Origin: a virus
Taxonomy: Duplodnaviria > Heunggongvirae > Uroviricota > Caudoviricetes
Length of the DNA stretch: 23,574 nt
IMG/VR virus record: IMGVR_UViG_3300029843_000030
Strand: one strand, 5' to 3'
Below the pieces are notes generated by a model that did no database searches, was not told the DNA's origin, and worked only from the letters and a program-made list of their open reading frames with translations. Of this stretch, positions 5,341 through 5,898 are shown piece by piece; position 1 is the first letter of the stretch; each line of letters opens with the position of its first letter. Made by a program: the position numbers and the translations under genes.

Positions 5341-5898
5341 TTATATACGTCCTTTAAGATAAGTCAGTCCTGGATGAAACCAGTAAGCCGGCACTTTTTT
5401 AAAGGGCGGATTATCAAAATCACGAAGAAGAGCCTCCCGCACAACTGCATCCTTGTCCGCACCACTGGCCAGCGCTTCAATCTCAGCAGCTACCTGCAGA
5501 TATCCCATGCAACGACCAATGCACTTCATCAGCCCCTGCTTTTTATTGTTCTTCAGGTAATCAATGGCAAATTCAATGAGCTCCTCACTGTGCTGGTGCG
5601 ATGGCGGTGTTACTTTCCCATTTTCTGAGATGGTTATTTTCCCAGCATCACCGGATACAACAAAGGATGGCCGGTTACACTCCCATTCCAGCTCACTGAA
5701 ATTATCATTATGAATACTGAAACACTCTGCGAGATTTCTGCTCATCACTTTCCGACAATAATCGTCAAACGCAGCAAACTGCTCATCGCGGCGTTTTTTT
5801 TCATCTTCAGAAGGCATCAGCGCCGACAGTTTTTTATTCAGTTCAGCAATTTCATTTTCCAGGCGACTGAAGCGCTGATTCATTTCTTCATGGTTCAT
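5341..5898 (-). CDS. Unknown 185-aa soluble protein inserted between holin and endolysin
   Basis: ATG 3 nt after the holin stop with a GGAGAG Shine-Dalgarno inside the holin 3' end, so translationally coupled. Predicted N-terminal coiled coil, no TM segment, no recognised motif. Confidence 0.6.
   Translation of the reverse strand: MNHEEMNQRFSRLENEIAELNKKLSALMPSEDEKKRRDEQFAAFDDYCRKVMSRNLAECFSIHNDNFSELEWECNRPSFVVSGDAGKITISENGKVTPPSHQHSEELIEFAIDYLKNNKKQGLMKCIGRCMGYLQVAAEIEALASGADKDAVVREALLRDFDNPPFKKVPAYWFHPGLTYLKGRI

Follow-up and report, generated by a model that had tools for sequence, protein, structure and literature searches.

A gene for a 185-residue protein lies between the pinholin and SAR endolysin genes in the late region of a Stx-type lambdoid prophage. 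Our analysis points to a late-expressed, non-essential cytoplasmic accessory of moron-like character, which would modulate the end phase of lysis and not be a core lysis component; we put the probability of this reading at roughly 0.55. Accessory genes in this position, the ydfR slot of K-12 Qin, are already known from prophage cassettes. What is new here is a gene that occupies the slot without a YdfR domain and carries a previously undescribed conserved domain, termed domain D. The DNA analysed (the window) is a stretch of 23,574 nucleotides, IMG/VR record IMGVR_UViG_3300029843_000030, and the features of its lysis region are as follows.

5902 to 6117, minus strand: S21-type class II holin, 71 aa, beginning MYQM (PF04971 'Bacteriophage P21 holin S', E = 7e-33)
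5905 to 5912, minus strand: Shine-Dalgarno sequence GGGGAGAG, built from the final holin codons (R-G-E), as read from the sequence
5899 to 5904, minus strand: holin stop TAA (5904-5902) and the 3-nt spacer ATA (5901-5899) before the next ATG
5341 to 5898, minus strand: coding sequence of the 185-aa protein, the feature under study (ATG 5898-5896, stop TAA 5343-5341; 21.3 kDa, pI 5.8)
5713 to 5898, minus strand: module C, a heptad-patterned helical hairpin, residues 1-62 (AlphaFold2 helices 3-27 and 31-62, pLDDT 70-90)
5668 to 5712, minus strand: variable linker, residues 63-77 (pLDDT below 50 for residues 58-71)
5344 to 5667, minus strand: module D, a beta-hairpin plus helices, residues 78-185, with the conserved tail DFDNPPFKKxPxxWxxPGxxYLKxR
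5299 to 5340, minus strand: endolysin leader, 42 nt, A/U-rich and unstructured, without a recognisable Shine-Dalgarno sequence
4765 to 5298, minus strand: lysozyme-family endolysin with a SAR-like N-terminus, 177 aa (PF00959 Phage_lysozyme, E = 7e-24)

A sequence-only reading of the window had described a 185-codon open reading frame at 5341 to 5898, and the frame is present, on the minus strand. Its junction with the holin gene, read directly, is ...CGG GGA GAG TAA ATA ATG, which confirms that the start lies 3 nt past the holin stop and that its Shine-Dalgarno sequence lies inside the holin gene. The location between a pinholin and a SAR endolysin was likewise borne out by the PF04971 match upstream and the PF00959 match downstream. 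At 0.45, the GC content of the gene is below that of its neighbours (holin 0.54, endolysin 0.56). Its product is hydrophilic and acidic; as the GRAVY value is -0.62 and the maximum 19-residue Kyte-Doolittle score only 0.94, no transmembrane segment is predicted, and the expectation of a soluble protein holds. The predicted N-terminal coiled coil was recovered as well, both as a 4-3-4-3-4-3 heptad pattern over residues 6-27 (M6, F10, L13, I17, L20, L24, L27) and as the helical hairpin of the AlphaFold2 model. The gene is annotated 'hypothetical protein' everywhere, including in E. coli T309.Ta3, which is 99.9% identical to the window over this stretch.

It had further been claimed that the protein is made in fixed ratio with the holin. 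The coupling-ready start stands, while the fixed ratio does not: the Shine-Dalgarno sequence is strong and no RNA structure sequestering it or the ATG was found (z = +1.06 relative to shuffled sequences), so that the gene could initiate independently of the holin. Translational coupling to the holin is plausible. A consensus scan of the minus strand from 5300 to 6200 detected no sigma-70-like promoter, and the sole terminator-like hairpin that such scanning revealed nearby lies upstream of the holin (6184-6155). This hairpin has 13 pairs, 6 of them G-C, and is followed by a U-rich run; it separates the DUF826 gene from the start of the holin, where it might act as a read-through terminator or influence holin initiation by its structure.

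The holin is annotated as 'class II holin family protein' in T309.Ta3. Its MYQM start (6108-6117, minus strand) retains Met1 and Met4, spaced as in the dual start of S21, but lacks a lysine at position 2. In S21, the lysine at this position gives the usual charge difference between antiholin and holin, which would thus be absent here. The N-terminus of the endolysin is rich in Ala, Gly and Leu (MNTKIKYGLSAAVLALIAAGAP) and an E-8-D-5-T motif can be read from its sequence. Stx-phage endolysins of this type have been called R21-like SAR endolysins (PMC8136144), and Stx-type late-region cassettes combine a pinholin with such an endolysin (PMC8136144, PMC10462455). Translation of the endolysin may depend on the upstream open reading frame, given the leader at 5299-5340. 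In K-12 Qin, the bases homologous to this leader fall within ydfR, and the rrrQ ATG overlaps the ydfR stop. Because of the leader lacking a Shine-Dalgarno sequence and the ydfR/rrrQ overlap in Qin, the holin, the slot gene and the endolysin look like a translational chain.

Downstream of the endolysin a KilAC/ANT antirepressor gene (3796-4491, minus strand) is followed by Rz. A 43-aa, strongly hydrophobic open reading frame (3570-3701, minus strand) also lies between endolysin and Rz, and the cassette is thus broken at a second place too. The holin is preceded by genes for DUF826 and DUF1378 proteins and by a frameshifted gene for a nanS-p-like esterase. The latter (SASA esterase/DUF6645, 6811-8772, minus strand) is split into three overlapping frames (6811-7248, 7232-7936 and 7789-8772) and carries the annotation 'frameshifted' in T309.Ta3 as well. 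Like Stx-type phages, the window has three tRNA genes further upstream in its late region (11107-11356, minus strand), namely Arg-tct, Arg-tcg and one with a CAT anticodon, assigned to Met by ARAGORN and to Ile by the RefSeq annotation.

The 185-aa frame is a genuine gene, more than a chance frame, as follows from its substitution pattern, its homologues and its profile match. Over 26 distinct intact alleles from related loci, dN/dS is 0.25 (0.22 for module D), which shows that the gene is under purifying selection; the selection is weaker than that on the holin and endolysin, with values of 0.064 and 0.074 at the same loci. Of 5426 complete E. coli genomes, 250 contain at least 80% of the gene length and 879 some part of it, and homologues of the protein fall into at least 168 protein clusters. 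PHROG 1085, to which no function is assigned in PHROG, matches residues 1-185 with E = 7.1e-113 over positions 117-296 of its 296, that is, only over the C-terminal two thirds of the profile. Decayed copies also occur: a 1-nt frameshift near codon 23 was seen in three prophage copies from one IMG genome (L051-L053, L120, L133), and in many human E. coli isolates an unannotated stretch of domain D comes after a 'YdfR family' pseudogene (L179:2053-2942).

Protein alignment of slot proteins of 103, 161, 169, 185, 213, 268 and 329 aa resolves them into four modules: A, the DUF1327/YdfR domain; B, a linker; C, the heptad helical hairpin; and D, the conserved domain of about 110 aa. The window gene is C+D, without the YdfR domain. 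K-12 YdfR consists of A only, the 169-aa protein of PhiR12_2 of A+B+C, the 268-aa protein of phage 86 of A+B+D, and proteins of 287-329 aa (e.g., the 329-aa protein of Stx2_95) of A+B+C+D. The 161-aa protein of Stx2_14744 joins C to an unrelated C-terminus, and a 213-aa form has an insert between C and D. Module C follows DUF1327 in PhiR12_2 and Stx2_95 and precedes a different C-terminus in Stx2_14744. The linker at residues 63-77 is the site of the 28-36-residue insertions in alleles of 213-222 aa. At the DNA level, one breakpoint coincides with the holin stop; others fall near codon 18, within codons ~48-70 and 20 nt past the stop of the 185-aa gene. The 185-, 213- and 161-aa alleles have the conserved start MNHEEMNQRF in common.

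Within module D, H103, G128-R129, G132, L134-Q135, P165, K167 and the tail are invariant or nearly so in 44 E. coli and Salmonella sequences, and the window protein carries these motifs, including the tail DFDNPPFK...W..PG..YL. DUF1327 (PF07041, Pfam gathering score 25 bits) gave no match to the 185-aa protein even at E ≤ 0.1, while the positive control, the 296-aa protein P0036, scored 138 bits; BLASTP against K-12 YdfR returned no alignment at E ≤ 100. By alignment, the 185-aa protein is related to 'YdfR family proteins' only via their C-terminal modules. The gap between S and R is a recombination-bounded, hypervariable slot filled by a modular family. The impression of an unusual, one-off insertion in a lysis cassette therefore stands in part: an uncharacterised soluble protein does sit in the slot, but it is no singular case, as members of the modular family fill the slot in most related cassettes.

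The content of the slot was surveyed in the best 80 of at least 595 IMG/VR matches with holins 97-100% identical to that of the window; 74 of the 80 were informative, and the set is redundant, so that the proportions are rough. Among these 74 cassettes, the slot was empty in 11, the endolysin ATG following 1-4 nt past the holin stop. It held a DUF1327-only gene (86-116 aa) in 31, a 176-aa DUF1327 protein without D in four, a D-containing gene in 26 and other forms in two. The D-containing genes of this best-80 set encode proteins of 296 aa (ten), 268 aa (four), 185 aa (five, plus three frameshifted), 213 aa (two) and other sizes. Across all slot classes of the same 80 matches, holin identity is 98.6-100% and endolysin identity 87-99%, eight of the 11 empty-slot holins being 100% identical to that of the window, and no co-variation between slot content and holin allele was observed.

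The arrangement GGGGAGAG-stop-N3/4-ATG is a fixed feature of the holin 3' end in all related cassettes, whichever gene comes next. The 3-nt spacing is kept in the 185-, 213- and 161-aa alleles, the stop codon varying between TAA, TGA and TAG, and where the slot is empty the endolysin itself uses this coupled start behind the holin. The occurrence of the same holin and endolysin alleles with empty or other slot contents argues that the 185-aa gene is dispensable for the lysis machinery, and by this comparison it is dispensable for the architecture of the cassette, which evidently functions in its absence. The variable presence and deviant base composition by which morons are recognised are both seen, with 11 of 74 slots empty (best 80 of at least 595) and a GC content below that of both neighbours.

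An AlphaFold2 model built from 44 E. coli and Salmonella sequences had a mean pLDDT of 76.7; one built from 20 close sequences was dropped as too poor (60.6). In the retained model, a hairpin of helices 3-27 and 31-62 is joined by a disordered linker (residues 58-71) to domain D, which consists of three short strands (80-97) and helices 101-117, 123-144, 151-161 and 175-184. Averaged over blocks, pLDDT lies between 77 and 94 for residues from about 71 to 160 and drops to 60-66 in the highly conserved tail.

Searches of Pfam, NCBIfam and PADLOC with the 185-aa protein returned only sub-threshold coiled-coil noise (e.g., Relaxase_C, E = 0.049). In the defence models of PADLOC-DB 2.0, no family matched the window protein or two Salmonella homologues at E ≤ 0.1. 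A profile search of PDB sequences gave a designed coiled coil as its best match (E = 0.036), and the tail briefly resembles the start of M3 oligopeptidases (N-terminus, E = 0.17), which we took to be coincidence. No relative of domain D, by sequence or by fold, was detected in Pfam, NCBIfam, PADLOC, PDB or BFVD; a fold relative may exist elsewhere. The papers searched on ydfR, DUF1327 and Stx-phage lysis cassettes yielded nothing on the 185-aa protein. The gene had been called unknown at the outset, and HMM searches and structure prediction agree: they give no known defined family, only PHROG 1085, and a model made up of a hairpin and domain D.

In a scan of one genome per species over 185,579 species, using patterns from the E. 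coli alignment, domain D was found only in Escherichia sp., Shigella flexneri and E. coli. When 1.84 billion representative proteins were searched with a profile, 42 matched, some of them spurious repeat proteins; P0145 and P0154 were ruled out as remote homologues, being HEAT and SRCR repeat proteins. Adding remote matches to the profile brought in many prophage proteins of Salmonella enterica, 190-340 aa long. Their domain D is 35-45% identical to that of E. coli, and their N-terminus is a sub-threshold DUF1327 (E = 0.004). The gene order in Salmonella is Q, an antisense HicAB pair, the domain-D gene, a convergent small gene, a small open reading frame, an HP1-type holin, lysozyme and Rz, which places the domain-D gene upstream of the holin and not between holin and endolysin. 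One metagenomic contig has it two genes upstream of an S21-type holin.

Further metagenomic and viral loci of the E. coli type numbered 158, and 128 of them show the full holin-X-endolysin order. The other 30 have the holin just upstream or the endolysin just downstream, the missing side being mostly cut by a short flank; two of the 30 lack an endolysin despite a long right flank. Even in the exceptions (Salmonella and the metagenomic contig L175), domain D lies about 1 kb or less from a holin. The domain-D family is always found near a class II holin/lysozyme cassette and is untied to one position or holin type. The 185-aa gene itself has both the class II holin and the holin-X-endolysin position of a YdfR-type gene.

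A conserved, convergent gene of about 105 aa, resembling gp06 of phage 86 (...ELSYLDCxWD...QKxRLFxxLSG), directly follows domain-D genes in E. coli, Salmonella and unassigned metagenomic contigs (L003:2858-3172, L005:3154-3468, L093:4807-5124, L176:585-902 and L177:436-759, all on the minus strand) and was seen at 41 of the 158 further loci. It matches nothing in Pfam or PADLOC and is absent from the window. It would be transcribed against the late operon and is our best lead for a possible functional partner of domain D.

In the reading we favour, the 185-aa gene would be transcribed only from the Q-dependent late promoter, and its product made together with the lysis proteins, its start using the Shine-Dalgarno and stop context that the holin 3' end offers to the next gene. 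The protein probably oligomerises via module C. Domain D and the tail may bind a host or phage partner late in infection, as their conservation suggests, the conserved tail being modelled at low confidence. The protein would modulate the end phase of lysis and not execute it. Of the two roles first proposed, lysis regulator or cargo, the findings lean to dispensable cargo, given the empty or otherwise filled slots next to holins of 98.6-100% identity and the upstream gene order in Salmonella; proximity to the cassette keeps a role in timing alive. The tight linkage of domain D to holin and endolysin, complete at 128 of 158 loci and partial at 30, would also fit a lysis-related role.

A regulator of lysis timing, that is, a cytoplasmic antagonist or enhancer of the pinholin (e.g., via the basic C-terminal tail of 13 residues) or of SAR-endolysin release, is the alternative that survives best, and we regard it as rather unlikely. 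It is consistent with the distance of about 1 kb or less that domain-D genes always keep from a class II holin and lysozyme in three gene orders, with the conserved 3-nt spacing of the start behind the holin stop, with the acidic and soluble nature of the protein, and with P1 lydB, which has the same coupled post-holin position and is annotated 'LydA antagonist'. However, hhalign revealed no homology to LydB (probability 0.09%, E = 0.58), and the 185-aa protein is not a LydB homologue. The near-identical holins with empty or DUF1327-only slots (best 80 of at least 595) indicate a lack of co-adaptation, and the free swapping of modules (A only, A+C, A+D, C+D and C+D') is hard to fit to one fixed partner. 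Moreover, in Salmonella a convergent gene and a small open reading frame come between the homologue and the holin.

A bolder proposal, less probable again, is that domain-D proteins, with or without the ~105-aa partner, might represent a new class of cytoplasmic regulators of pinholin/SAR-endolysin lysis, in which a new fold would set lysis time or endolysin release and modular N-termini (DUF1327 or the hairpin) would couple this control to host signals such as RNase E.

We consider it very unlikely that the gene serves as a translational relay in cis, its translation carrying ribosomes from the holin stop to the endolysin start and setting endolysin output, with the protein itself mattering little. 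The endolysin leader without a Shine-Dalgarno sequence, the overlap of the endolysin ATG with the ydfR stop in Qin and the coupled position of the endolysin in empty-slot cassettes would suit such a relay. Nevertheless, the protein sequence is under purifying selection (dN/dS 0.25) and its invariant residues are shared by E. coli and Salmonella proteins of 30-45% identity, while 42 nt separate the 185-aa stop from the endolysin ATG and the unstructured leader could bind ribosomes alone.

Still more doubtful is the idea that the gene is a decaying remnant of the YdfR family, functionless in itself, whose N-terminus was truncated with the loss of DUF1327. Longer A+B+C+D proteins of 287-329 aa are common, and frameshifted copies and YdfR-family pseudogenes with an unannotated D module do occur, but the C-first form has its own conserved start, MNHEEMNQRF, and is not a simple deletion derivative, its 26 intact alleles are under purifying selection, and intact copies are present in about 250 complete E. 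coli genomes.

The least probable reading is a factor directed at RNase E or RNA, acting like K-12 YdfR on host or phage RNA late in infection: residues 1-72 of YdfR bind the catalytic half of RNase E and RNase G in two-hybrid and pull-down assays, YdfR preparations carry RNA (PMC13232886), and modules C and D are fused to DUF1327 in many relatives, but the binding maps to DUF1327, for which the 185-aa protein gave neither a Pfam match nor a BLASTP alignment, and overproduced YdfR altered few transcripts (PMC13232886).

Stx-type pinholin/SAR-endolysin cassettes control the timing of lysis and hence the release of Shiga toxin, and most descriptions list only S, R and Rz/Rz1. A fourth, modular gene is present between S and R in about five sixths of closely related cassettes (best 80 of at least 595 matches). 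Its domain D, of about 110 residues, is confined to prophages of Escherichia/Shigella and Salmonella and has a fold without a known relative. An effect on burst size and toxin release would follow if the 185-aa protein adjusts the timing of lysis or the amount of endolysin made; if it is pure cargo, it would offer a compact case of domain shuffling at a fixed recombination slot. The occupancy and modularity of the slot are under-appreciated, and nothing mechanistically surprising was found.

Compared with known systems, the 185-aa protein does not resemble the membrane antiholin of the S21 71/68 type, as it is encoded by a separate open reading frame of unrelated sequence and has no hydrophobic segment. 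Closer in arrangement is LydB, the antagonist of the P1 holin LydA, whose gene also encodes a non-membrane protein right after the holin with overlapping or adjacent stop and start codons. Genetic evidence for a role in lysis exists for LydB. In contrast to the window, where the endolysin follows the slot, the P1 endolysin is encoded elsewhere; lydB overlaps the stop of LydA, and P1 also uses a SAR endolysin (PMC9025707). The two proteins share no detectable homology.

The closest positional counterpart is ydfR of K-12 Qin, and the initial statement that a smaller gene occupies the equivalent slot proved correct: the order is essQ-ydfR-rrrQ, and YdfR (b1555, PF07041) has 103 aa compared with 185. 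Both genes stand in a late operon after a class II holin (essQ in Qin) and before a lysozyme (rrrQ), the ydfR start lying 4 nt past the holin stop. However, YdfR consists of module A and the window protein of C+D, with no sequence similarity between them, and the RNase E/RNase G binding residues 1-72 of YdfR are absent from the 185-aa protein. Its assignment to the DUF1327/YdfR family was considered on the strength of position and the PHROG 1085 profile and rejected, as the domain is absent. The 'YdfR family proteins' of 268-329 aa, such as gp05 of Stx2 phage 86 (YP_794052) and the 329-aa protein of Stx2_95, occupy the same slot and share module D at 86-96% identity and also module C. They differ in starting with DUF1327 and a linker of about 100-140 residues, whereas the window protein starts at module C with its own conserved initiation codon. 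Phage 86, unlike the window, has the convergent ~105-aa gene next to gp05.

Classical morons carry their own promoter and terminator. For the 185-aa gene a consensus scan found neither, and the ribosome-binding site is supplied by the holin 3' end. In its other traits the gene resembles the cargo of lambdoid late operons (stx, nanS-p and bor), which is likewise non-essential, variably present, of lower GC content and found close to the lysis genes in the late region under Q control.
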